A stretch of 64,000 nt of DNA from a virus. Below the pieces are notes generated by a model. It ran no database searches. It was not told the origin of the DNA and was given only the letters and a program-made list of their open reading frames with translations. The DNA is taken from positions 27,247 to 91,246 of the IMG/VR virus record IMGVR_UViG_3300027749_000070. One strand, written 5' to 3'. Positions 12,020 through 64,000 of the stretch are shown here, in pieces. Position 1 is the first letter of the stretch; each line of letters opens with the position of its first letter. The position numbers and the translations under genes are program-made.

Positions 12020-13669
12020 ATGTTAAAAGATAAATTATTAGTAAATGGAAAATTTGATAGTAGGACAAAAGAAGAATATATTAAAAAACATTATCCTTTA
12101 TATTATCAAGAGATATTAGACTTTGTTATATTATATAAATTTGAAAATTTTGAATGGAAAAGAAAATTATATCATTATATGTATGATATTAAAAATATAC
12201 CTATATGTGTATGTGGTAATGAAATAAATTTTAGAGGTAGAATAGAAAAAATCTATAACGATTTTTGTTCAACAAAATGTTCAGCTATAAATGTTTCAGT
12301 TAAAAGAATGGAAACATTAGAGAAAAATAACATGGAAAAATATGGTGTTAAAAATGTTTTTCAATTAGACTCAGTTAAACAAAAAAGCAAAAATACTTGT
12401 TTAGAAAAATATGGTTTCGATAATCAAAACAAATCAGTTATAATAAAGAATAAAATAAAGGAAACTAATTTAAAAAAATACGGAAGTGAATATTATATGG
12501 GTAGTTTGGATTTTATGGAAAAATCTAAAACAACATGCTTAGAAAAATATGGCAGTACTCATCCTATGAAAAATTTAGATATCAAAGAAAAGTTAAAAAA
12601 TGTATTTATAAAAAAATATGGCACTAATACTATTTCAGAAAATGATAAATTTAGAAAAGATAATTTTTGTATAGCAAAAAATATAAATTATATTAAATAT
12701 ATTGGAAATCGTATTTCTCTATTTAAATGTGATTTAGGAAAAAACCACGAGTTTGAAATATCTAAAAATATTTATATAACTAGAACAAAAGCCAATAATC
12801 CTTTATGCACTATTTGTTATCCTATATCAGAAAATAATTCAATAAAAGAATTAGAACTATTAAGATTTATTCAAGAAAATTATAAAGGTGAAATTTTACC
12901 TGGGTGGAGAGGTCAACTAGAAATAGATATTTATTTACCCGAATTAAATATAGGATTCGAATTTAATGGACTTTACTGGCATTCAGAAGAATATAAAAAA
13001 AATAATTACCACTTAGATAAAACATTATTTTTTAAAGATAAAGGCATAAAGATTATACACATATGGGAGGATGATTGGGATAACAAGAAAGATATAATAA
13101 AAAGCCAAATTATAAATTATTTAGGATTAACAGAAACGAAAATATTCGCTAGAAAATGTCAAATTAGAGAAATTATAGATTCGTCTAATTTTTTAGATAC
13201 TAATCATATTCAAGGAAATGCTAAATCTGTTATTAAATTAGGGTTATTTTATAATAATGAGTTAGTTTCTGTTATGTCATTTGATAATTTTGAAGGTAGA
13301 AAGAAGATGGAACAAAGTGGATGGAATTTAAGCAGATTTTGTAATAAAATAAATTATAATGTTATTGGTGGTGCAAGTAAATTATTAAATTATTTTATTA
13401 AAACTTATACCCCATCGAGAATAATTAGTTATGCTGATCGTAGTTGGTCTGAAGGGAATTTGTACTACCAATTAGGATTTAAATTGGTAAACGAAAGTAA
13501 ACCAGATTATAAATATATCGTTAATAACGTTAGAGAAAATAAAACAAAATATAAAAAATCTAAATTAATTAAAAACGGATTTATAGGCACAGAAAAAGAA
13601 ATAACAGAAAATCTTGGTTATAAGAGAATATACGATTGTGGTAAAATTAAATTTGAATATATCTTATAA
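12020..13669 (+). mobile_element. Hef-like free-standing homing endonuclease
   Basis: Repeated EKYG segments; EIDIY..GFEFNGLYWHS, IHIWED, FARKC, ISYADRSWSEG..Y..LGF, IYDCG. Confidence 0.8.
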
Positions 13670-26686: not shown

Positions 26687-27474
26687 TACATTCTTGGGAG
26701 TGGGTAATATATTTTAAGAATATCTTTCAATTCATCTCTATTACTTGAATTAGCATATACATTATACAAATTAACTTTATTAGTAAATGATTTAACAACT
26801 CTTTTCATCCTTTCAGGATCAATTTTCATAAATAACTTCGGCACATATGAATAACCAAGAGCCGATCTCAATTCTTGATTCGTCATGTCATCAAATACTT
26901 TCTTACCTATAAGTTTAACCATTTCAACTGGATTTTGTGAATATTGTATTAATCCTTTTTTTTCACTATCAGTAATAATATTTAAAAACTCAGTTCCTTT
27001 TTGACCTAAAAGAGTTATTACTTCTTGTGGATTTCTACTTCTTCCTAATACTGATTCTATAATTTGCCTATTAGCAATTTTAATAAACTTTGGATTTTGA
27101 AAAAACATTTTAATTATTGTATCAGTATATTCATCATCACGATCTATTATATGACTCATCCCATAACTTAAACCACCACCATACTGTGATTTCCAATCAA
27201 ATATACCAGCAGCACCCGCACTCTCATCATCGTATATTTCTACAAAATATACCTTATCAATTAATTTATTTACATACCATATTTGATTAGTATGTGAAAG
27301 TTCTTTAAAACTATCTATATCAAGATTCAAATTAGAATCGTCAGCTTGAAGATATCTTAATTTGTCCTCTTCAGATAACTGATTATAATCTCGGTCTAAA
27401 ATAGGATCATAATCTAATTCATGTGCTTCTTGAGCGTCTTCAAATATATCCTTATATCTTTTTAAATGTTTCAT
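26686..27474 (-). CDS. Hypothetical protein with capsid-targeting-like N-terminus
   Basis: MKHLKRYKDIFE; short helical repeats toward the C-terminus. Confidence 0.7.
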   Translation of the reverse strand: MKHLKRYKDIFEDAQEAHELDYDPILDRDYNQLSEEDKLRYLQADDSNLNLDIDSFKELSHTNQIWYVNKLIDKVYFVEIYDDESAGAAGIFDWKSQYGGGLSYGMSHIIDRDDEYTDTIIKMFFQNPKFIKIANRQIIESVLGRSRNPQEVITLLGQKGTEFLNIITDSEKKGLIQYSQNPVEMVKLIGKKVFDDMTNQELRSALGYSYVPKLFMKIDPERMKRVVKSFTNKVNLYNVYANSSNRDELKDILKIYYPLPRM

Positions 27475-53202: not shown

Positions 53203-54495
53203 ATGGCTCTTAATATTTTTACAGGCTCAACAACAGCTAACTGGGGTTCAACATCATCTTGGACTCTTAATAGAATACCTACATCAACAGATTTAGATAC
53301 AGCTTACTTTGGTCCTATAAGTCCAACCTGTTCGGTGAATGTAGTTGGTGCGCCTTGTTACAATTTTGATTGCTCAACTTATATAAGACAGATACAGATG
53401 GCACAAAATTTAAGTATTTATGGTACATATTCTAACTTTGGTAATAGTGCTTCTATTAGATTTAGTGCTTCGTCTGGCCCAGGCTCAACTATAACCTATT
53501 TTAATGCAACTTGTAGTATAACATCAAATAATTATGTATTTAAGAGAGAAATGTTTACTACATTAGGACAACAAGGTATTATATTCTTTTCAGCACCAGG
53601 TAGTGGTGCTATCATTACACTTTTAGATCAATTTGAGGCAACAGCAGTACAAATTTCACCAAATTCTGGTGTACCTACATTAACTCTTAATGGTGCTACT
53701 TTCTCTGTTAGAGAAAGTTTCACAGTTGCAAATAATGTCACTCTTAAAGGAAGTAATATACAAATAAAAGCAACTGCTTCAACAACAACAACCACTTTTA
53801 CAACGAACATTACACCGATGAGTAATAACATTTATATTAACACACCTGGTAGTGTAACCATAGCAACACTTTATATATTACCTCTTAATAATACGACACA
53901 AACCTTAAAATGGATTAGTGGTACAGTAAATAATGGTGGTAGTTTAGTAGTAGTAGCAAATAGTGGAACATTAAACTTGGATTGGTCGCCAACTCACACT
54001 TGGGCTACATTTCAATTAAACTCTGTTGCTACAACTGGTTTAACATCAAGTATTGTTACAACACAACCAATAAATGCTACTATTCTTACATTAGCACAAT
54101 CAGGAGCCGGTGGTTCATATAATAATTATATAACAGGTGGATTTACTTGTAGTATATTTAACTATACAAGAAGTATAGCAAGTGATTCAAGTATATTATG
54201 GATAAGTCCAACATATAGTCATTATATAAATGGCACATATAATTCTTATGTAACTTCAACAGCAACAAATACTTTTAATAGAATAAATAGTATAGTACCA
54301 GGTACAAGAGCTCCACTTATAGTAAGTTATAATACTAATCAATTTTTATGGAATTGTTACTTTACAGATATAGATGCATCAAATGGGTCAACCATATTAC
54401 CATATTTAGTAACAGCAACTTTAAGTAATACATTAAATATATTGGATCTTAAAAAGAATACAATAATAAACTCAAATCAATTTTATACTAACTAA
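53203..54495 (+). CDS. Beta-rich fibre / receptor-binding protein, paralog 1
   Basis: T/S/N/G-rich; N- and C-termini shared with the next gene. Confidence 0.7.
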   Translation: MALNIFTGSTTANWGSTSSWTLNRIPTSTDLDTAYFGPISPTCSVNVVGAPCYNFDCSTYIRQIQMAQNLSIYGTYSNFGNSASIRFSASSGPGSTITYFNATCSITSNNYVFKREMFTTLGQQGIIFFSAPGSGAIITLLDQFEATAVQISPNSGVPTLTLNGATFSVRESFTVANNVTLKGSNIQIKATASTTTTTFTTNITPMSNNIYINTPGSVTIATLYILPLNNTTQTLKWISGTVNNGGSLVVVANSGTLNLDWSPTHTWATFQLNSVATTGLTSSIVTTQPINATILTLAQSGAGGSYNNYITGGFTCSIFNYTRSIASDSSILWISPTYSHYINGTYNSYVTSTATNTFNRINSIVPGTRAPLIVSYNTNQFLWNCYFTDIDASNGSTILPYLVTATLSNTLNILDLKKNTIINSNQFYTN

Positions 54496-56141
54496 TGGCA
54501 GTTTTAACATTCACAGGCTCAACACCAGGAACTTTTAGTGTAGCAGCAAACTGGACACCAGCTCAAGTACCAACAAATGCCGATATATGCATATTTACTT
54601 CATCAAGTCCAACTTGTTCTCTAACATCAATTGGAACTTGTAGTCAAGTTGATTTTACAGCTTATAATAAAAGAATTAATTTTGGGGTTAATGCAATTGG
54701 CGTTTATGGTAACATTACATTAGGAACACAAATGTCTTTTTCATTCTCAACAACTGCTGCTTATAATGGATATAATTTTATTATGGCAGCTACTGGTTCA
54801 ATTACTACAAATGGTATGACAATGGGTGTTCCTTTTGGTTTATATAATCCTGCTGGTTCAAATAACACTTATACCTTAAATAGTAATATGGTATGTGCTG
54901 AAAACTTTTCAACAGGTGCCGCTGCTGGTGCCTTAACTCATACTATAAATGGATTTACTATATCTTGCTATAAAAATGTAAGTATAAATATAGGTTCAGG
55001 CGCTTCTTCGACATCTACAACAGGTACTACAAATATACTAATACTTGGTACAAATCCAACAATCTTATTAACTAATGGTACTACAAATGGCTTTACAAAT
55101 AACATTACTATTAACGCAATAGGTTCAGTTACGATGCCTGTTAACTTTTATTACAAAACAGGAACATTTAAGTATATATCAGGTACATTTAGCGCATTTA
55201 ATATAGCACAAACAGGTTCATATACATTAGATTTAAGTGGTAGTTCATCAGCAAATAGATTACCTATAACTATTGATAATAATGGATTAGCAGCCGCTAC
55301 AATAACGATGTTAAGTGATTGCCATATAACAGGTGGATTAAGCTCAGTTAGTAGAAACTTGGTATTAAATGGTGGTGATATATATCTTTATGGTACTGCT
55401 GTTTTAGTACCACAAGGTAGTGCTATTTATAGCGGTACAACAACTATTAGATTAGTAGGCACACACAACTTAAGTATGAGTGGTACTCTTGCTTGTAATA
55501 TATCTATACAAACAGCAGGAACTATTAACTGGAATCAAGTTCAGTGGTACGCTCAATCAGGTGGTGCCTCATTTGTATATACATCAGGAACTATGGTATA
55601 TAGTGGAGCAAACTTTCAAATAGGAAATAGTTCTAACCAACATACATTTTATACATCAGGTATTACTTTTAATAATGTATCAGTATATACCGGCGCACCA
55701 GTTAATATAAACCTTCAACAACAACTAAACGCCACTACATTAACAGTAGTATCAACAAATACTTATATAAGTATGACTGGTTCATTTGGATTTGTAGTAG
55801 ATACATTTTCGCCAGCCGTATATAATACTTCAAGAATAGGTTTATCCTTGCAGCCAGGTTTAACATATAAAGTTAATAAAAACTTTGTATATAATCCAGC
55901 AGTATTCTTAACAACTATTTATGGTATTAAATCGCAATTAGCAGGTAGCCAATCAAAGTTTATATTAGCATTTGGTGCATCACAATCATTGCATTCAATA
56001 GTAACAGATGATATAGATTCATCTGATGGACAACCGATATGGATTTGGAACTATAATGGCATAACAGCTAGTACAAATACATTAAACTGGAATAACTTAC
56101 AACCTAGTTCAGTTCAGTTCTCAGCTATAAATGTAAGTTAA
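54495..56141 (+). CDS. Beta-rich fibre / receptor-binding protein, paralog 2
   Basis: FTGST...W....P...D..F...SPTCS and DID.S.G..I...NTLN shared with paralog 1. Confidence 0.7.
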   Translation: MAVLTFTGSTPGTFSVAANWTPAQVPTNADICIFTSSSPTCSLTSIGTCSQVDFTAYNKRINFGVNAIGVYGNITLGTQMSFSFSTTAAYNGYNFIMAATGSITTNGMTMGVPFGLYNPAGSNNTYTLNSNMVCAENFSTGAAAGALTHTINGFTISCYKNVSINIGSGASSTSTTGTTNILILGTNPTILLTNGTTNGFTNNITINAIGSVTMPVNFYYKTGTFKYISGTFSAFNIAQTGSYTLDLSGSSSANRLPITIDNNGLAAATITMLSDCHITGGLSSVSRNLVLNGGDIYLYGTAVLVPQGSAIYSGTTTIRLVGTHNLSMSGTLACNISIQTAGTINWNQVQWYAQSGGASFVYTSGTMVYSGANFQIGNSSNQHTFYTSGITFNNVSVYTGAPVNINLQQQLNATTLTVVSTNTYISMTGSFGFVVDTFSPAVYNTSRIGLSLQPGLTYKVNKNFVYNPAVFLTTIYGIKSQLAGSQSKFILAFGASQSLHSIVTDDIDSSDGQPIWIWNYNGITASTNTLNWNNLQPSSVQFSAINVS

Positions 56142-56196
56142 AAAATTTCGCCGAAATACTTAAGAAAATTTTTCCAATATTTATTAAAAAATCCAT

Positions 56197-56466
56197 CTAC
56201 CTCTCAAATATACTTAAACTAGGATGATCCATAAAAAAATTAAACATATTATCAACATATTTTAACTCACTATTCCAATCCCCCAATAACATAAAATTAT
56301 TATTAATCTGACCAATAGATAAATATCCTACTATGTCAAATACAAAATTTAATATACTATACATCCTAATACCTTCCCTATCATAATAACTTAATAAATC
56401 ATACGAATAAAAATCACCTAACTTATAATTACGAAACGAACTCGAACAAACTAAATTATATACCAT
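56197..56466 (-). CDS. Hypothetical protein
   Basis: 89-aa ORF with a strongly G/T-rich coding strand. Confidence 0.5.
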   Translation of the reverse strand: MVYNLVCSSSFRNYKLGDFYSYDLLSYYDREGIRMYSILNFVFDIVGYLSIGQINNNFMLLGDWNSELKYVDNMFNFFMDHPSLSIFER

Positions 56467-56521
56467 GCTAATTAAAATTATAATGTAAAATTATAAAAAA
56501 AAATCGTAATAAACAAATATT

Positions 56522-56649
56522 ATTTTAATCAATAAAAAATCCACTATATAGATTTATAGGTATTTTATACAGGATTTTATTTTTATTTGTCAAATAATTT
56601 TAATCAATAAAAAATCCACTATATAGATTTATAGGTATTTTATACAGGA
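56522..56649 (+). repeat. 53-bp direct repeat x2 (75-bp period)
   Basis: ATTTTAATCAATAAAAAATCCACTATATAGATTTATAGGTATTTTATACAGGA at 56522 and 56597; extra TCCAC partials at 56691-56709. Confidence 0.95.
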
Positions 56650-57716
56650 ATTTTTATTGGATTTATTCTAAAATTTTTTCACAAATTTCTTCCACTATAA
56701 AAAATCCACCTTTTATTAGAATATATCTAATATATAAATTAATTTGGATTTTTTTTCTAATTTTTTACTATTTTTAATAAAATTAAAATCTAGCTCGCTC
56801 CCAAAGCGAGCATTACCAACAATCTTGTAGAACGATAAATAATCCTTCAATAAGAAGTTTTGTGAGTTAAAAATTAGAAAATTTAAAAAAATATAAACCT
56901 GGAAAGCCTAAAAGGGCCTAAACGGGTCTTTTTAGGCATAGTTCATATATACTCTATATTACATATGTTACATATACCGCAAAATCGTCATATGTAACAT
57001 ATATGCGATCTCACATATGTGTCACGTTATACATATACAAGACCATATATATGTATCGCGCCTATATGTTAATTAACATTTGTAACATATAGGCGTGGCA
57101 CGTATATGTTAATAGCTAGTTATCTATGTGTTAATTCGTTTACATAATCAGCAATGTTTCTACGCAGATCTGCGATCATATATAGACATGTGTATATATG
57201 TTCGCAACATATCAATATGTCTATATATGTTTATGCTCAGAAGCGATCATCCATTTATATTTGTTGCTGAAAATGTTAGACTATTAACAACTGATTAACG
57301 ATTGCTTAACATATTCGCTGTTTATATAATGTTAATAGAATGTTAAAGTTTTTATGGATTACATCACCTCTAGAGATTTGTTGTTGAATATGTTAGTTGA
57401 TTAACGAGTGATTAACATGTATGTTAAAATGTTTATATGTTAATGTTATAATATGTTAAAGCGAAACATATCGAAGATATGTATATAACTTTTACATATG
57501 TGTTTATGGAAGCCCATCGCCGGGCATAATTTATTGTTGAAAATGTGAGTTGATTAACAAATAGAGAAATTACAAATACATAGTTGCACTATGTTAATGA
57601 AACAACATTTTCAGCAATTAAATTTCTGGAGTGCGATTATGAATATATTATATTTATTTATATATGTTAAGAAAAAATAAAACACACATTTTTTATATGT
57701 GTGTTTTATTATATGT

Positions 57717-57923
57717 TTACATTAATTCAAGTGAGTTCATATCAAAAGTTTCTTTATATACTACTTTTTTTGATATTTCGTTATTTTCAATTTGTATTAA
57801 CTCTTCAATTAATTCGTCTTCTTCAATTTCAGCTTTAATTTTTGCTTTTGCTGTTTTGACTTTTCTCAGTAGCTTTTGTACACGTCTTATTTCACTCATA
57901 GTGAAATCTGTATTTTGCGTCAT
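57717..57923 (-). CDS. Small cassette protein (basic then acidic helix)
   Basis: Own TATCTTTG element (57954-57961) and downstream hairpin (~57676-57710). Confidence 0.7.
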   Translation of the reverse strand: MTQNTDFTMSEIRRVQKLLRKVKTAKAKIKAEIEEDELIEELIQIENNEISKKVVYKETFDMNSLELM

Positions 57924-58179
57924 AAGTTTTCGATTGCTGTTTTGTCAGCAATACAAAGATACGCAAAATACTTTTACAAAAGTAACACAAAAAGTCGGCA
58001 TTGGGAAACTTTTTGTGTTAAAGTTATGTTAAAGCTTTATATTAAATGTGTTATTATTTGTTAATGCTCAAGCATTTTCAGCAATAAATTTATGCGCAGC
58101 TACTGTGCTGAGTTGATACAATTTAAAAACTATTTTTAAAATTGTTTGTTTTATTTCGAAAGTTTGTGTATCTTTGAAT

Positions 58180-58214
58180 ATCGAAGTAAAAAAGTGGTCG
58201 CTTGCGCTTTATTT
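58180..58214 (+). ncRNA. Putative tiny hairpin RNA, copy 1
   Basis: TTTG-N20-TATCTTTG promoter followed by AAAGTG-GTCGCTTG-CGCTTT; no ORF. Confidence 0.4.
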
Positions 58215-58743
58215 AAATGTTAATAAAGTGTTAAAAACGGATGGAAGCCCATCTGGTTTAAAATTTGTTGTTGAAAATGTAGTGTCATTAACATATAAGT
58301 AATACCTTTAATATGTTAATTGCTCGTTAATCGAGTAGCAATTTCAACAATAAATTTAAACGCCTCTGCGCCTGGTGAAAACATATATGAAAAAGTTATA
58401 TATGAAAAAAATGTAATATGATGGTGGTTCATCCACCAAAAAAATTTGTTGCTGAAAATGCGAGTTGATTAACGAGTGATTAACATATTATAAAAAAAGC
58501 AATATCATTTTGGTGGACCTGCAGGTGTAAAATTTATTGCTGAAAATGTTGTTTCATTAACAAATTAGAAAATATACATATATAAGTTACACAAATGTGT
58601 GTAATTGTGTGGATAACTTTATTTGTTGCTGTTGCAAGTATTTCGTAAATTACAGCATTGACTTTAACATTTCTTTAAAAACATAATGTTAAAAGTGAGA
58701 TATGTAGATTGCACTACATATATGATAAGTTATGTTTATATGT

Positions 58744-58783
58744 GATAGCAATATGTAACATAATTATGTTACATATTGCTATC
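58744..58783. terminator. Perfect 40-bp palindrome after the Zn-finger ORF
   Basis: GATAGCAATATGTAACATAA|TTATGTTACATATTGCTATC. Confidence 0.75.
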
Positions 58784-58794
58784 TTACAAATTTG

Positions 58795-58995
58795 TCATTT
58801 TAAATCGTCAGGTAGTCCGATACCTTCAAAGTTGTAGTTCTTGTTTTTGATTGCTTCGATGTCAGCTTGTTCAGCTTCTTTATACTTCGTGTGTTGTTTT
58901 TCTGTGTCTTTGCACGTCATACAAATCATTTGAGTATTGAACATTGACATTGTAGTAATGTTTGTTTGTGTGTTGCATCTGTTGCAATTTTGCAT
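58795..58995 (-). CDS. Small CxxC-CxxC zinc-finger protein
   Basis: CNRC...MSMFNTQMICMTC; promoter TTTG-N20-TAACTTTG (59025-59056). Confidence 0.8.
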   Translation of the reverse strand: MQNCNRCNTQTNITTMSMFNTQMICMTCKDTEKQHTKYKEAEQADIEAIKNKNYNFEGIGLPDDLK

Positions 58996-59380
58996 AAGTA
59001 TAAGTAACTGTTTTATCAGTAGAGCAAAGTTACGAATGAGTTAATTACAAAACAAATAGATGTTGTTAAAGTTATGTTAATAGTAGGTGTTTTTTGTTTG
59101 TTAATGACATTGCATTTTCAGCAACAAATTTTTTGAATCTGTGATTCAATTTATATTATAATTTTTTATATATGAGTGTGTAAAATAATACATATTGAAA
59201 AGTTACAAAGTGTAATTTAACAATATGTATTATTTTTTATATTAAACTAATTGTTGTTCTATTGCGTATTTAATATGATGGAAGCGCAGTAGGATGAGAA
59301 TTTATTGTTGAAAATGCTGTTGCATTAACAAATAACTAATAAAATAAAGCATTATATGTTTCATATAATGCTTTATTTTA

Positions 59381-59689
59381 TTAGTTGGTTTCTTTAATAT
59401 TTTCGATAGACCAGCCGTATTTTTCTTTATACCAATTGTGGTAATTTTGCATACGTGTTTGTAGTATTGCGATTGCTTCACGTAAGCGGGCTGCGCCAGC
59501 ACGATTACAAACTAATAGCGTATCATTAAAGCCGCTGTATGCTTCAAATGATTCCATTGAAAGTCCGTCACCTTTGGTTCGTTCAACTGGGTGTGAACTA
59601 AGGCGGTAGCCTGTGCCTTTGTGGTATATTACGGAGAATTTAATTTCTTTCCCGTTTTCTAATGTAAAATATTGTTTGTGTAGTGTCAT
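59381..59689 (-). CDS. Hypothetical cassette protein
   Basis: Promoter element 59704-59711; terminator hairpin ~59338-59382. Confidence 0.75.
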   Translation of the reverse strand: MTLHKQYFTLENGKEIKFSVIYHKGTGYRLSSHPVERTKGDGLSMESFEAYSGFNDTLLVCNRAGAARLREAIAILQTRMQNYHNWYKEKYGWSIENIKETN

Positions 59690-60075
59690 GTCGTTCTTTT
59701 TTACAAAGATACGACTATCTTAATTAATAGCGTAAGTGGCGGATGTTAAAGTTTTGTTAAGGAACATATGTATATAATTATAATATGTTTTGTATGTGTT
59801 CTCTCTGGAGGGTGATCACCTGTAGAAATTTATTGTTGAAAATGTGGTTGCATTAACATATGGTAAAAGTTTAATATTTGTTAATCGACTTACATTTTCA
59901 GCAATAAATTTAATCCACCCAGCTCCAAAAATATATATGAAAAAATGTAATATGAATAGATATAAAAAAGCCCCATATAAAACATATGGGGCTTTGCTCG
60001 ATATGAGCATACAAGTTCACTACACTTGTATTCAACTATGACACATATGATAACATTACCATATGTGTCATATAG

Positions 60076-60924
60076 TTATTTTAGTACTGGGTACTGTTCA
60101 GTTGTTGGTTGATATGTTAAAGTTTTTAATTTCTTATCACGAAACATATTCCAACTTTTTACAAATAGTGCATAGCGATTAGATGCGATGACGGTCTTTA
60201 TATGTTTAGTTTCTTTATTCTTTACTAAGTAGTTACGAAACTGTAATACAGGGTCTTTCTCAGAAGTGAAGCCTAAGCCCGATGTAAGTGCATTAAAATA
60301 GCGTGATGCATCAGCCTCGTGTATGTCTGATGTTATTGCATACCAAGCACCAAGCAAAGACGGGTCAAGAAATCCACCGAATGACTTATGCGACTTATTA
60401 ACAAATTCTATAACATGCATCCAATAGTCGGGTCGTTTCTTATATTCAGCTAATAAATCATCCATGCTGAACATGCGATAATTGTCTGAGCTGTCTGTGC
60501 CTGCTTGTCTTTTACCAGATAGTTTTTTTCCTGATAAGAATTTTTGTATAATAGCAGCACATATTTTAGAGTTTTCAATTCCAGACATTTTGAATATGTC
60601 GCCAGGTGTTCTCTTTGTGCCTCTATCAATTATCTTGAAGTTCTCAGCGGGTACATTCTCAGCGATAGTCATACATACGGACTTTCCTGATATTATGACT
60701 GCTTGTAATCTGTGTTGTCCGTCTAACAGATTGTTTTTTTCATCAAATGATATTGGGATTGGGCTTGACTGACTGAATTCACCTCTTGTCATCAACTGCG
60801 CATAATTTTTCGCAATATTATCTTTGAAATCTCTGTTATTAGGATTTCTTTGCAACCATTCTGCTGCAAGTTCGGGAGTTACAAGTACTTGTTTGTACTT
60901 GTTCTGATGCATTTGATTTGTCAT
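60076..60924 (-). CDS. ParB/Srx-like N-terminal (DGQHR) domain protein
   Basis: VTPELAAEWL..N.NNR...Y...M..GEF...PISF...LLDGQHRLQA...IDRG..R. Confidence 0.8.
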   Translation of the reverse strand: MTNQMHQNKYKQVLVTPELAAEWLQRNPNNRDFKDNIAKNYAQLMTRGEFSQSSPIPISFDEKNNLLDGQHRLQAVIISGKSVCMTIAENVPAENFKIIDRGTKRTPGDIFKMSGIENSKICAAIIQKFLSGKKLSGKRQAGTDSSDNYRMFSMDDLLAEYKKRPDYWMHVIEFVNKSHKSFGGFLDPSLLGAWYAITSDIHEADASRYFNALTSGLGFTSEKDPVLQFRNYLVKNKETKHIKTVIASNRYALFVKSWNMFRDKKLKTLTYQPTTEQYPVLK

Positions 60925-61238
60925 AATTGAATTGTTTTATTTAGTGAGATACAAAGATAAGGACTATTATTTAAAAAGTGCTTTTTATTTAGTTAAAGTA
61001 ATGTTAAAGCTTTTCGCAGCGTAAGGATTTAAATATGTATTCTACATTAATGTAGGAAACATATTTAAATTATGTATAATTAATAATTTTATATAATAAA
61101 AACTCGAAAAAATTTGGGTTTTTTGGAGAAATGGTGTATAATTAATTGCTGAAAATGTAGTTGCATTAACAATTAGTTTTTAACATAATTTTAACAAAAT
61201 AAATTAGGTTAATAATTATAAATGTTGTACTTTTACAA

Positions 61239-61271
61239 TAGAAAAGAAAGGGCGGACGCTTGCGCTTTTTT
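61239..61271 (+). ncRNA. Putative tiny hairpin RNA, copy 2
   Basis: TACTTTTA (61228) then AAAGGGCG-GACGCTTG-CGCTTTTTT. Confidence 0.4.
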
Positions 61272-61300
61272 AAAATGTTAATAGAATGTTAAGGTGGAGA

Positions 61301-61585
61301 AAAGCTCCATCGCCGGATAAAATTTATTGCTGAAAATGTAGTTGCATTAACATATTAAAGTATTTTATATATGTTATTGGAAGCTCATCGCCGGATAAAA
61401 TTTATTGTTGAAAATGTAGTTGCATTAACATATTAAAGTATTTTAAATAGGTTGGTAGAAGCCCATCGCCGGATAAAATTTATTGCTGAAAATGTAGTCG
61501 CATTAACATATTAAAGTATTTTATATATGTTATTGGAAGCTCATCGCCGATAAAATTTATTGTTGAAAATGCAATGTTATTAACA
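61301..61585 (+). repeat. Tandem 78-bp repeat x4 (156-bp higher-order dimer) containing the 33-bp motif
   Basis: AAGCYCATCGCCGGATA-motif-TATTAAAGTATTTT; units alternate GCTGA/GTTGA. Confidence 0.95.
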
Positions 61586-61824
61586 AATGCTTTTTGTTAA
61601 CAATTGTTTAACATATTAATGGATATAATATATGGTTTGTGGGTAAGTATTTTTGAATAGCTATTAGCAATAGCTTACTTTTATTATCTTATGCTTATAG
61701 TGTTAAAAAGCGTTACATATTTAAAAGATAAGCTATATGTAACGTTTAGAGGTAACATTTTTGTTATATATTATTTGGTTACCTAATTATGTTACATTTT
61801 TGTGTAACATAATTAGGTTGTTTT

Positions 61825-62162
61825 AACCAAAAAACACAACTATGAAATGTGTGGTGGAAAATTACTATTTAAAGTAGTTAAATATATCTGGGAATATATA
61901 TAACATTTTCCGTGTCAAACTACATCCCATCCGTTGGGTAGTTTAGCCCCGTTGTTTTTTTAATTAGTGGGGCTAAAGGAATTGAACCTTTTTGAAGGGT
62001 TTGCTGTATGTAGTTTTGTCAGGTCAACTTATAGTCTTTATGCGGGTTAAAATGTTAATGAGTTGTTGTCCCGCATCCGCTATCCAAAGACGGTTATTAC
62101 AATTTACAATTTGTTTTTTTAAGTTGTTTGTAGTTTGCTGCTTTTGACCTTATTGATTATTG
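61825..62162 (-). ncRNA. Putative structured non-coding RNA with tRNA-like elements
   Basis: Promoter TTTG-N19-TATATTTG (62198-62168); no ORF; at least 7 helices; T-loop-like GGTTCAATTCC; 3' acceptor-like stem ending ACCA. Confidence 0.55.
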
Positions 62163-62283
62163 TATTGCAAATATACGACAAAGTTTTGAAACTACAAAAT
62201 AGTTTTTCACATAATTATTATTACAAAGTGAAAAACTACAAAATTAAATTTGGCTGAGTAAATTATTTGCATTATCTTTGTGT

Positions 62284-62562
62284 ATGGCTATACACTTATT
62301 CAATGCTGTTAAGGACTCGCTTCCATGGGAAGCTTTGCCTGAAACATTACAAAAAGTTATCATAGATACTTTTCGTATCGAACCGAAATATGCTGTGCAT
62401 AAAATACAGAAATGGGGTGAAAGCGGCTGGCTACTTCATTTCGGTGTTATGGGTAGTTTTTCTATTGATGCTAATCATTTTAGTATAATGGAAAAATATA
62501 ATATGGGTATTCAAGTGCCCGGCAATCAAACGTATTTGTGGAATTTATCTATAAGTGAATAA
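62284..62562 (+). CDS. Hypothetical cassette protein (near-leaderless)
   Basis: TTTG(62249)-N20-TATCTTTG(62273), ATG 3 bp later. Confidence 0.7.
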   Translation: MAIHLFNAVKDSLPWEALPETLQKVIIDTFRIEPKYAVHKIQKWGESGWLLHFGVMGSFSIDANHFSIMEKYNMGIQVPGNQTYLWNLSISE

Positions 62563-62616
62563 CAAATAATTAACGTAAAGATTTGGCATTTCTACGGAAA
62601 TGTCGTATCTTTACAC

Positions 62617-62649
62617 TATAAAGAAAGGACGGTTGCTTGCGCTTTTTTT
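62617..62649 (+). ncRNA. Putative tiny hairpin RNA, copy 3
   Basis: TTTG-N20-TATCTTTA then AAAGGACG-GTTGCTTG-CGCTTTTTTT. Confidence 0.4.
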
Positions 62650-62741
62650 AAATGTTAATAAAATGTTAAGAGCTTGGGAAGCACATCCAGCTCACCGATT
62701 TATTGTTGAAAATGTAGTTGCATTAACATATTAATAAAATA

Positions 62742-62772
62742 AAAATAGTCACCTATAACAGGTGACTATTTT
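62742..62772 (-). terminator. Intrinsic terminator
   Basis: AAAATAGTCACCT-ATAAC-AGGTGACTATTTT. Confidence 0.8.
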
Positions 62773-62790
62773 CGGGTATATTAATATTTT

Positions 62791-63216
62791 CTATGCGGGT
62801 TCAGCGATTGCTGGCACTTCAACTTCTGGTTTATTCAATTGATTTAGAAATACACGAATGCTTTGTGCCATTAAACATTTTTCTAATCTATCGCTGATGT
62901 CAGCGAAGGACACATTATGTTTTCTGTAATCTTTGATAACTTTGAGTATTGACTGAATTGTTTCGTTATCTTTGGCAAGAGTATTTTTTGTATGTGCTTC
63001 TATTCCCGTTTCCGCATGACGAATACCGAAAGACATATCACCGATTTTTATAGTCAGTGATTTTTCGCTATGCGATATGAAAAACTTTTGTGTAAGCGGT
63101 TCAGCGGCTTCTTTTTGTTTGCGTGGCGTAACTACTTTAAAAGTTCCGTTAGCTTGTTTTTTGGGTGTAGTTTTTTTGGGAGTAACTACATTGAACATAA
63201 TTTGTTTTGCGTCCAT
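62791..63216 (-). CDS. Hypothetical cassette protein with basic TP(K/R)K N-terminus
   Basis: FNVVTPKK..TPKK..FKVVTPRK; own promoter (63234-63264) and terminator. Confidence 0.75.
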   Translation of the reverse strand: MDAKQIMFNVVTPKKTTPKKQANGTFKVVTPRKQKEAAEPLTQKFFISHSEKSLTIKIGDMSFGIRHAETGIEAHTKNTLAKDNETIQSILKVIKDYRKHNVSFADISDRLEKCLMAQSIRVFLNQLNKPEVEVPAIAEPA

Positions 63217-63285
63217 AACGTTCTATTTTTGTGTAAAGATATACAAAAGTTTTAACACAACAAAAACAATGCTGTTAACGTTGTG

Positions 63286-63462
63286 TTAAAATAACGGTGG
63301 CGGCATATTTTTGTAGCTGTGTGTGTATTTGATAGCAAATGCAGCAGAAATGCCGAAAATCATCAAATATACTTTGAAACATATTACCGCAATTAGTAAT
63401 ACTTTATTTTCAGCTTTTTTCAGCTTCTTTCTCTCTATTACTAGTAATGGATGAGTTGACAT
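63286..63462 (-). CDS. Small membrane protein
   Basis: Start at MSTHP; TATCTTTA at 63482-63489 with a TTAACA-type box 32 bp upstream. Confidence 0.55.
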   Translation of the reverse strand: MSTHPLLVIERKKLKKAENKVLLIAVICFKVYLMIFGISAAFAIKYTHSYKNMPPPLF

Positions 63463-64000
63463 AAAAAATAGTTTTAGAATATAAAGATACAAAAAATAAA
63501 TGATGCACATACTTTTTTATTGTTAAATATATGTTAAAATACATATTTAGTTTATAGTAATACAAAAGATAGTCTTCTTCAAATTTATTGCTGAAAATGC
63601 AGTGCCATTAACAATTAAAAAAATCTATATATTTAGGTAAATATTTTATATAAAAATATATAAAAAACTGCTTATATTATATAAATTATATACAATTTAA
63701 AATAAATGTGAAATTCGTTGGATATAATTGATTTTATATATCTTTTAGAACATATTAAATAAAAGATCGTCAAGATCATGATATATATAAATACTACTAT
63801 ATTACAGGGTTATTTTTCATGTGTTAACATAACTTTAACAAAAATTATTTCTTAACAAATATTTAAGATAAAAGATTAGGTGATATCAGGACTCTGTTTA
63901 ACGCTATTTTTAGACGAAATGAGCGTATCTATTGTGTTTAGATAATCTCTATTGCGCTATGTTTCGATCGTGTCTGGTTTAAAAATAAGCTATTCTACTA

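Follow-up and report, generated by a model that had tools for sequence, protein, structure and literature searches.

A 33-bp quasi-palindromic repeat around the small genes of an uncultured, probably T4-like phage: a putative protein docking site in PeSL-like cassettes

What is the function of a 33-bp sequence that recurs twenty times within 6.4 kb of a viral contig, in the spaces around a group of small genes? The question is raised by the right-hand end of a stretch of 64,000 nucleotides (hereafter the window; positions 27,247 to 91,246 of the IMG/VR record IMGVR_UViG_3300027749_000070), which is the final 64 kb of a linear IMG/VR contig of 91,246 bp with a CheckV completeness of about 36%. 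The original prediction, made from the letters of the window, had described near-invariant arms around a variable 7-bp core that divide the region into single-gene cassettes, and had proposed an integron- or shufflon-like platform or, alternatively, an array coated by protein. The reading that we favour, with a probability of roughly 0.4, is that the 33-mer is a putative docking site for a dimeric DNA-binding protein which would co-regulate or insulate the early units, the shuffling of these units being a by-product. The 33-mer is thus best read as the most conserved module of a composite regulatory or boundary cassette in a hyperplastic early region. Positions below are those of the window unless they are given as contig positions.

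A consensus search allowing up to three mismatches returned exactly 20 matches in the window, 15 on the plus strand and 5 on the minus strand, with the positions and strands that had been predicted; the expectation from 100 dinucleotide-preserving shuffles was 0.00. The motif had also been noticed in this region of the window only, and the restriction extended to the whole contig: with a position weight matrix built from the 20 copies, the copies themselves scored 36.7-50.0 bits and everything else in the 91,246 bp scored less than 12 bits. All the copies lie at 84.5-90.9 kb of the contig, that is, in its final 7 kb, and there is a lone weak look-alike with 2 mismatches at contig positions 84,376-84,400. 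The 33-mer family is sharply bounded. Within it, 22 of the 26 positions of the arms show little or no variation, and at the variable ones, 7 (R), 11 (Y), and 33 (R), the changes are transitions only. The 7-bp core, present in 16 distinct versions among the 20 copies, is variable as predicted but not freely so, position 20 being always a pyrimidine (C/T) and A being absent from positions 23, 25, and 26. One core is common to four copies because of recent duplication, part of which is a 78-bp tandem array of 3.5 units. Another, TTGTTTC, is indeed shared by the copies at 57592 (minus) and 58530 (plus), as had been pointed out; at least one identical pair arises in 19% of column shuffles, so that chance suffices and the sharing was rejected as a sign of inversion.

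The arms could in principle be conserved as peptide, as RNA, or as DNA. Read in codons the 33-mer gives KF(I/V)(A/V)EN(V/A)xxLT, in which the transitions would be conservative substitutions. A micro-peptide KFIxENVxxLT was rejected, as four copies have internal stops and five have a stop just before; moreover, there is no variation at third codon positions in the arms, and the conserved flank is in differing frames among the copies. In both senses the 33-mer alone had a folding energy between 0 and -5.5 kcal/mol, the copies had no structure in common, and a search of Rfam 15 gave no family match, the best hits being palindromic hairpins against miRNA models far under the cut-offs; a structured RNA or a known RNA family was rejected on these two results. 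The cores of convergent pairs of copies are not complementary, therefore there is no selection for a long hairpin between them. Since the peptide reading fails and neither a fold nor an Rfam family was found, the constraint is on the nucleotides of duplex DNA.

As DNA, the copies have a dyad character. Their quasi-dyad, TTGYTGA-N13-TTAACAA, is formed by inverted repeats at positions 8-14 and 28-34 with the centre at position 21, and the outer 7-mers match at a mean of 4.95 of 7 positions against a background of 2.0 (6 or more of 7 are reached in 0.7% of background windows). The half-site TTGTTRA, which reads TYAACAA on the other side, is thus present twice per 33-mer, 20 bp apart from centre to centre. 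Half-site doublets of the form TTAACN-N5-TTAACN, with a spacing of 11 bp, occur 17 times in the array, and for the strict plus-strand form TGTTAA-N5-TGTTAA all nine occurrences in the contig are in the array. Together with a palindromic related site in a Chitinophagaceae genome, described below, these patterns make the 33-mer appear to be derived, in a lopsided form, from a dyad-symmetric site of the dimer type with its half-sites two helical turns apart, and the TTAACA doublets of the promoters look like tandem copies of the same half-site one helical turn apart. Of the two alternatives in the original prediction, the protein-coated array is the one that best fits the constraint on DNA and the dyad. 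The two flanks of the repeat differ: all the copies have a GC-rich segment on the AAATTT side (57-58% GC at -15 to -6), which forms a clear hairpin in about half of them and carries the word GGAAGCYCATC in one subfamily, and the GC content of the opposite, ATTAACA side is 17%.

The units between the copies follow a common grammar. Every gene of the array, and some other genes of the contig, are preceded by TTTG-N18-21-TAnnTTT(G/A), and TTTG-N18-21-TAnnTTTR is the promoter grammar of Bacteroidota, described in Bacteroides and Flavobacterium. In the minus-strand genes the promoter is built from a doublet TTAACN-N5-TTAACN, 31-32 nt (54 in gene A), the -7 box, 14-30 nt, and the ATG; the doublet-to-box distance of 31-32 nt is found in genes B, C, D, F, and G, and it is 31 nt in a plus-strand unit (61180/61228). 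Hairpin terminators follow genes A, C, D, E, and F, and each gene terminator has a 33-mer 9-178 nt beyond it. At least one 33-mer lies ahead of every promoter region, and the repeats sit outside the promoter-gene-terminator units; relative to the next promoter they stand in the written sense for genes A and B and the 61228 unit, and in the reverse sense for C, D, and G. Self-contained promoter-ORF-terminator units and RNA-only units were located between the copies as originally described, ORF standing for open reading frame.

The array holds six small minus-strand genes and one plus-strand gene, which, gene D apart, are all ORFans, and searches of Pfam, NCBIfam, PADLOC, and PHROG matched none of them to a family with known function. 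Gene A (57717-57923, minus; 68 aa, ORFan) has its doublet at 58016-58032, its -7 box at 57954-57961, and its terminator at 57676-57710. The same elements are found for gene B (58795-58995, minus; 66 aa, Cys-rich, PHROG 27033) at 59064-59080 and 59025-59032, with a hairpin at 58740-58787, and for gene C (59381-59689, minus; 102 aa, ORFan) at 59744-59760 and 59704-59711, with the terminator at 59339-59381. Gene D (60076-60924, minus), the longest with 282 aa and assigned to PHROG 5931, has the doublet at 60991-61007, the -7 box at 60952-60959, and the terminator at 59967-59995. The plus-strand gene E (62284-62562; 92 aa, ORFan) lies between a promoter at 62249-62280 and a terminator at 62584-62605. 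On the minus strand again, gene F (62791-63216; 141 aa, ORFan) has the doublet at 63273-63289, the -7 box at 63234-63241, and the terminator at 62741-62773, and gene G (63286-63462; 58 aa, hydrophobic, ORFan) has the doublet at 63521-63537 and the -7 box at 63482-63489.

Numbered M1 to M20 from left to right, the copies are distributed as follows. M1 (57257-57289, plus), whose own TTAAC is followed by two more TTAAC at an 11-bp period, and M2 (57374-57406, plus) open the array. M3 (57527-57559, plus) stands head-to-head with M4 (57592-57624, minus), which is 52 nt past the terminator of gene A; M6 (58261-58293, plus) stands in the same way with M7 (58325-58357, minus), and M12 (59826-59858, plus) with M13 (59879-59911, minus), which is 56 nt past the terminator of gene D. 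The gaps in these three pairs, predicted to be 20-32 bp, measured 32, 31, and 20 bp, respectively. M5 (58059-58091, minus) is followed on the minus strand by the doublet, promoter, and coding sequence of gene A, and M10 (59099-59131, minus) by those of gene B. M8 (58442-58474, plus) and M9 (58530-58562, plus) are 88 bp apart, and M11 (59298-59330, plus) is 9 nt from the bidirectional terminator of gene C. After M14 (61139-61171, plus) come, on the plus strand, a doublet (61180) and a -7 box (61228), and then M15-M18 (61320-61585, plus; starts at 61320, 61398, 61476, and 61553), which form the 78-bp tandem array with 90% matches. M19 (62696-62728, plus) is 13 nt from the terminator of gene F, and M20 (63581-63613, plus) is upstream of the doublet and promoter of gene G. 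Beside the minus-strand copies M7 and M13, on their AAATTT side, we observed a shared ATATATGAAAAAATGTAATATGA-like module with a 15-bp sub-repeat (58378-58421 and 59927-59964), which at M13 sits between the 33-mer and the gene terminator. To the left of the array, 56950-57250 is a 300-bp ORF-free stretch of overlapping palindromes of ACATATGT and ATATGTTA words that could be regulatory or origin-like.

Three further units, a, b, and c, belong to a repeat family (D6), are free of ORFs, and have each a canonical promoter on the plus strand. Unit a (58145-58234) consists of the promoter TTTG-N20-TATCTTTG, a conserved GCTTGCGC hairpin with a T-run, and an inverted doublet, after which come a GC hairpin and M6. 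Unit b (61228-61292) has the same module and leads into M15-M18 and a hairpin with a T-run at 61657-61683, and unit c (62582-62669), again with this module and with the gene E terminator (62584-62605) inside its promoter spacer (62582-62613), continues into M19 and on to the terminator at 62741-62773. The combination of GCTTGCGC hairpin and T-run, inverted doublet, and 33-mer, which is thus present in three copies, could be an attenuator-like or small-RNA module.

We then considered the variation of the region among strains, for which Logan contigs from four sequencing runs of four studies were aligned to positions 54000-64000. In each run, 43-65% of the aligned contigs continue for at least 20 letters into unlike sequence; close strains are therefore mosaic in this region. 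The joint with the best support (side 74) deletes 59859-61074, that is, M13, gene D, and the gene D promoter; on the left it ends precisely at the 3′ edge of M12, on the right in AT-rich DNA 64 bp before M14, and there are 3 bp of microhomology. Beside M5 the substitutions are densely clustered from the first base past the AAATTT end onward, with no difference listed inside the 33-mer, and loose contig ends were found at the 3′ edges of M9 and M19. Taken together, the loose ends at 5 nt or less from a 33-mer edge were 3 of the 18 listed against 1.2 expected, which is not significant, and contigs built with a k-mer length of 31 break at repeats. The clean breakpoints are few and lie at motif edges or in AT-rich DNA. 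A signal of tandem copy number was seen at 78 bp and 88 bp, with junctions that are ambiguous at this k-mer length. Joints between opposite strands (sides of 30-44 nt) and most of the skips whose sides are shorter than 30 nt were set aside as repeat cross-mapping, and so was a skip of the whole array (56894 to 63639) backed by 21 letters only. It had been proposed that strains would differ by breakpoints inside the 7-bp core: they do differ, and none of the breakpoints in the aligned Logan contigs is inside a core. The strain data show plasticity, not the position of exchange.

Relatives of the array were also looked for. Protein-anchored scans with gene D, with an alignment of gene D, and with the adjoining tail-fibre gene found no relative that carries the array, and homologues of gene D at 49-74% identity are encoded on other contigs. 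The convergent two-copy pattern had 0 matches in IMG/VR, neither megablast nor blastn gave a match in cultured phages, and no RNA datasets were listed among the sequencing runs searched.

Taking these results into account, we propose that a dimeric, sequence-specific DNA-binding protein, probably encoded by the phage, would dock with high affinity on the double-stranded 33-mer, and that a half-site of the same protein would be used at the early promoters, in the direct doublets spaced by 11 bp. The bound sites would lie just past each terminator and ahead of each promoter, so that the protein could co-regulate the early units, either shutting them off or activating them, and insulate them from each other. 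With 33 bp in 20 copies, the sites would also offer patches of homology through which the general recombination of the phage may gain, lose, or duplicate units, as has been proposed for the promoter-early stem-loops (PeSLs). Several observations weigh against this proposal. No protein that binds the site was identified. A simple dimer operator needs less than the roughly 26 positions conserved here, among them an inner AAATG that is asymmetric and the AAATTT block on the 5′ side. The GC-rich flank on the AAATTT side only and the 15:5 bias in orientation give the repeat a polarity, which a directional element, for example a promoter in the reverse sense, fits better than a symmetric operator. 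The clean strain indel (59858 to 61075) was not produced by a simple exchange between two 33-mers, because one end only is at a 33-mer and the flanking copies are inverted. As the Logan contigs were built with k = 31, their breaks at a 33-bp repeat are in part an artefact. Finally, no second array was found in which the conservation of the site could be followed, since among IMG/VR and metagenome contigs none has more than one match to the motif.

One lead outside the phage came from a scan of species-representative bacterial and archaeal genomes, whose results are given here as found among the at least 120 matches listed. A freshwater metagenome-assembled genome of Chitinophagaceae (CANFHA010000023.1, 75011-75189) has two related sites on the same strand, 146 bp apart, which are the only matches with zero mismatches in its 4.7 Mb (about 0.003 expected, by our own estimate from composition). 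Site 2 is identical to the phage copy M19 at 35 of 39 positions, core included; site 1, a palindrome at 22 of 27 positions made of two left-arm copies, is the maximum in 20 kb of contig. Both lie in a 510-bp spacer, 100-280 bp upstream of a gene for a Resolvase-family protein of 207 aa (E = 1.7e-22), in an island with a tyrosine integrase, DUF5131, a D12 methyltransferase, a WYL regulator, and AAA ATPases. That the site is the cognate of this serine recombinase was rejected, since in two other genomes the site is missing from the roughly 1.5 kb around recombinases 76-77% identical to it, and the homology between those loci ends at the coding sequence. A wider homology between island and phage past the motif was not convincing. 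With this genome excepted, a host CRISPR repeat or regulon that the phage could mimic gave single chance matches only among the matches listed, and such mimicry was rejected: in Chitinophagales 4 of 401 genomes have a match, and three of these have one match each, no more than the reversed control gives. The sharing of the site with a Chitinophagaceae genome may hint at the lineage of the host.

Which other explanations could account for the repeat? The polarity of the flanks is best accounted for if the 33-mer is read in reverse, as TGTTAAT-N7-CATTTTCARCAA with YAAATTT as a degenerate -7 box, in which case it would be a phage-specific promoter whose transcripts start in the GC-rich hairpin and which is recognised by a host RNA polymerase remodelled by a phage factor, in analogy to the promoter-middle stem-loops (PmSLs). 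In T4, MotA and AsiA remodel the host RNA polymerase at middle promoters. Two conserved blocks with a variable spacer are typical of promoters, the AT-rich end resembles TAnnTTTG, the GC-rich segment that comes next could form a 5′ hairpin, the convergent pairs would become back-to-back divergent promoters, and the 15 plus-strand copies would point with the minus-strand genes; furthermore, PmSLs occur in phage nt-1 (PMC4122927). We nevertheless consider this explanation unlikely, although it is the competitor to which we give most weight. Each gene already has a canonical TTTG-N18-21-TAnnTTTR between the 33-mer and the ATG; the relaxed -7 pattern TAnnTTT[GA] is found in only 4 of the 20 copies and TTTG at -33 in none; M5 and M10 would fire away from the genes that follow them; and five tandem promoters before one gene would be odd. 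A general middle-type promoter was rejected, given that the motif is absent upstream of the replication genes and other genes in the remaining 84 kb. Less probable again is that the 33-mers serve as operators, or as a centromere, of the gene D product, which would spread over or silence the early region in the manner of KorB or of ParB on parS. KorB is a precedent in the ParB family for many operator sites near promoters. Gene D is encoded inside the array, with the densest cluster of copies (M14-M18) just upstream, and in a structural model (39 homologues, pLDDT 86) its residues 1-105 match the N-domain of ParB, Noc, KorB, and sulfiredoxin (Z 5.3-5.9 over about 87 residues, root-mean-square deviation of about 3.1 Å), with an invariant DGQHR motif, and are followed by a helical C-part. 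The match stops, however, before the helix-turn-helix (HTH) domain, no structural match being seen past residue 105-160 or so, the C-part has no clear DNA-binding relative, and the same N-domain is shared by proteins that have no centromere role (SspE, BrxU/GmrSD, and sulfiredoxin). There is no match in Pfam, NCBIfam, or PADLOC and PHROG 5931 has no assigned function; the homologues are scattered among unrelated actinophages and vibriophages; the strain variant that apparently lacks gene D keeps M12 and M14; and no ParA-type partner is seen in the array of a lytic T4-like phage that has no obvious need for partition. On the strength of the model, the gene D product is a candidate binder, nothing more.

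The proposal that the copies are attachment sites for the exchange of cassettes must be weighed together with these, and we judge it slightly less probable than an operator of gene D. A dedicated recombinase, tyrosine or small serine like the one of Chitinophagaceae, would be encoded in the two-thirds of the genome that the contig does not cover, and would be responsible for inserting, excising, or inverting the cassettes. The layout is cassette-like, some of the breakpoints in the mosaic strains are at edges of the motif (59858, 58562, 62728, and 58091/2), the sole related sites found outside the phage lie near a Resolvase-family gene, and a 27-bp span is that of hix or res subsites (PMC3241671). 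The absence of a recombinase from the window, already remarked on, was extended to the whole 91-kb contig, about 36% of the genome, where neither PF00239 (Resolvase; control positive in 12 of 14 genomes) nor PF00589 (Phage_integrase; control positive in 14 of 14) was found. Nor do the copies have the form of tyrosine-recombinase sites that had been suggested, with arms mirrored about an overlap of 6-8 bp that is the same in both partners: the arms are not mirrored about the core, the dyad involves the outer 7-mers only and has an odd centre, position 21, and with 16 cores among 20 copies, strand exchange in the overlap would be blocked for most pairs. The dinucleotide presumed to be central for a serine enzyme is not constant either. 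The sites of Din invertases, of 12-2-12 bp, read TTC---AAAC- -A -GTTT---GAA (PMC3241671, Table 3), and the left arm of the 33-mer agrees with this in nothing but T1, T2, and the A-tract, which make up 5 of the 7 positions specified in the left half-site consensus, with the right half unmirrored. The related recombinases that lack the site and the non-significant excess of loose ends, described above, speak against this proposal as well. Lowest of all we place a role of the 33 nt as RNA, for example as a repeated module in plus-strand noncoding RNAs that serves as a sponge or platform for an RNA-binding protein. Promoters at 58145, 61228, and 62582 do drive ORF-free units through M6, M15-M18, and M19 toward terminators, and variation by transitions only would suit an RNA, but the lack of a stable or shared fold and of an Rfam family, the five copies on the other strand, and the many copies outside evident transcription units argue against it. 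For one candidate host genome, complementary RNA gave 17 loose matches against 11 in the reversed control, and trans-pairing with host RNA was rejected there. The probability that remains is unassigned and would cover, for example, origin iterons.

Of the known systems, the PeSLs are closest to the array. These consist of a terminator stem-loop, an A+T-rich stretch, and a sigma-70 early promoter, and fill the intergenic spaces in hyperplastic regions of T4-type phages, where they flank ORFans that differ between sister phages; degraded half-copies occur, and recombination gives rise to deletions and encapsidated mini-circles (PMC2839356, PMC4122927). PeSLs or PmSLs are found in the phages RB49/phi1, T4/PST, and KVP40/nt-1 (PMC2839356, PMC4122927). 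The array resembles them in its T4-like phage, its small nonessential ORFans, its hyperplastic region mosaic between close strains, its terminator stem-loop upstream of a host-type early promoter in the same intergenic space, its conserved block, and its degraded or empty and tandem copies. In PeSLs, however, the repeat is the sigma-70 promoter itself, whereas here the most conserved repeat is a separate 33-bp quasi-palindrome that is unlike both the host-type and the late promoter and is found, in either orientation, outside the promoter, and the promoters of the array combine the Bacteroidota grammar with a fixed upstream half-site doublet. Mini-circles and exchange have been shown by experiment for RB49, while the array is known from sequence alone. 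We therefore file it as a variant of PeSL-type cassettes and not as a strict member, because one defining feature, a repeat that is the promoter, is not found in it.

The other systems are more distant. The array shares with the KorB operators (OB) of plasmid RK2 and with ParB-parS the many sites near promoters at varied distance and orientation, and a gene with the ParB/sulfiredoxin fold lies within it, but those sites are perfect palindromes of 13-16 bp, while the 33-mer is lopsided and of 27-33 bp, no HTH match or ParA partner is seen, and the replicon is a lytic phage. The stoperators of cluster A mycobacteriophages (L5 gp71) are dozens of asymmetric 13-bp repressor sites between transcription units, genome-wide and connected with lysogeny. 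They resemble the 33-mers in being many sites in short intergenic spaces between transcription units, and differ in having one orientation with respect to transcription and a genome-wide distribution, the 33-mers being confined to 6.4 kb, in both orientations, in a presumably lytic phage. With the attC sites of integrons and the sfx sites of shufflons the array has in common that repeats separate single-gene units. There is no nearby integrase and there are no R and L boxes of attC type, and in sfx the core is the conserved part, while here it is the variable one. A cassette array of an integron is promoterless, in one orientation, and served by a common promoter; the units here have each their own promoter and terminator and run in both directions, which does not support the integron or shufflon of the original prediction. 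With the Din-invertase sites hix, gix, and cix there is the limited likeness of the left arm given above, and no PF00239 gene in the contig.

Regarding the source of this DNA, the window encodes baseplate, tail-lysozyme, and tail-fibre proteins, several helicases, a homing endonuclease, and a PurZ-like enzyme, and the contig has matches to Gp23-family capsid proteins. The nearest cultured relatives of a helicase are phages of Bacteroides thetaiotaomicron with genomes of 167-179 kb, at 39% identity; one of these, Bacteroides phage DAC16, has a tightly packed gene order on a single strand. Near-identical DNA is present in freshwater and lake metagenomes of nine studies. Because of its structural genes, Gp23 matches, helicase relatives, promoter grammar, and freshwater metagenomes, the source is, as judged from these sequences, a large T4-like phage from freshwater that has not been cultured and infects Bacteroidota, with a host probably among the Chitinophagaceae or Flavobacteriia. 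The word TAATATATA occurs 31 times in the contig, and 24 of 92 crude gene calls have it in the 80 nt upstream of them, and in this distribution it behaves as a late promoter; it is unlike the late word of T4, TATAAATA, which precedes 0 of the 92 genes. Two genes away from the array may be mentioned. A 416-aa gene at 34971-36221 matches PHROG 1211 (PurZ-type adenylosuccinate synthetase, E = 6e-52), which raises the possibility that the phage replaces adenine by 2-aminoadenine in its DNA. A 549-aa homing-endonuclease gene at 12020-13669 (PHROG 3339, E = 8e-124), among the replication genes, would be in keeping with a genome rich in selfish endonucleases that may be able to seed recombination.

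The acquisition and trading of the many small early genes with which large lytic phages take over the host and counter its defences has so far been inferred mostly from a few pairs of coliphages and vibriophages. The present locus has the same cassette logic in what appears to be a T4-like phage of Bacteroidota, written in the promoter grammar of that phylum, and it adds an element that is far better conserved, a 33-bp quasi-palindrome whose half-site seems to be built into the early promoters as well. If the copies were sites of a site-specific system, this would be a new kind of phage-borne, integron-like platform, with cassettes that have their own promoters and terminators and stand in either orientation. 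If a protein binds the 33-mer, it would give access, through one factor, to the entire early programme of an abundant lineage of freshwater phages, and the site would be a portable regulatory part for the genetics of Bacteroidota.

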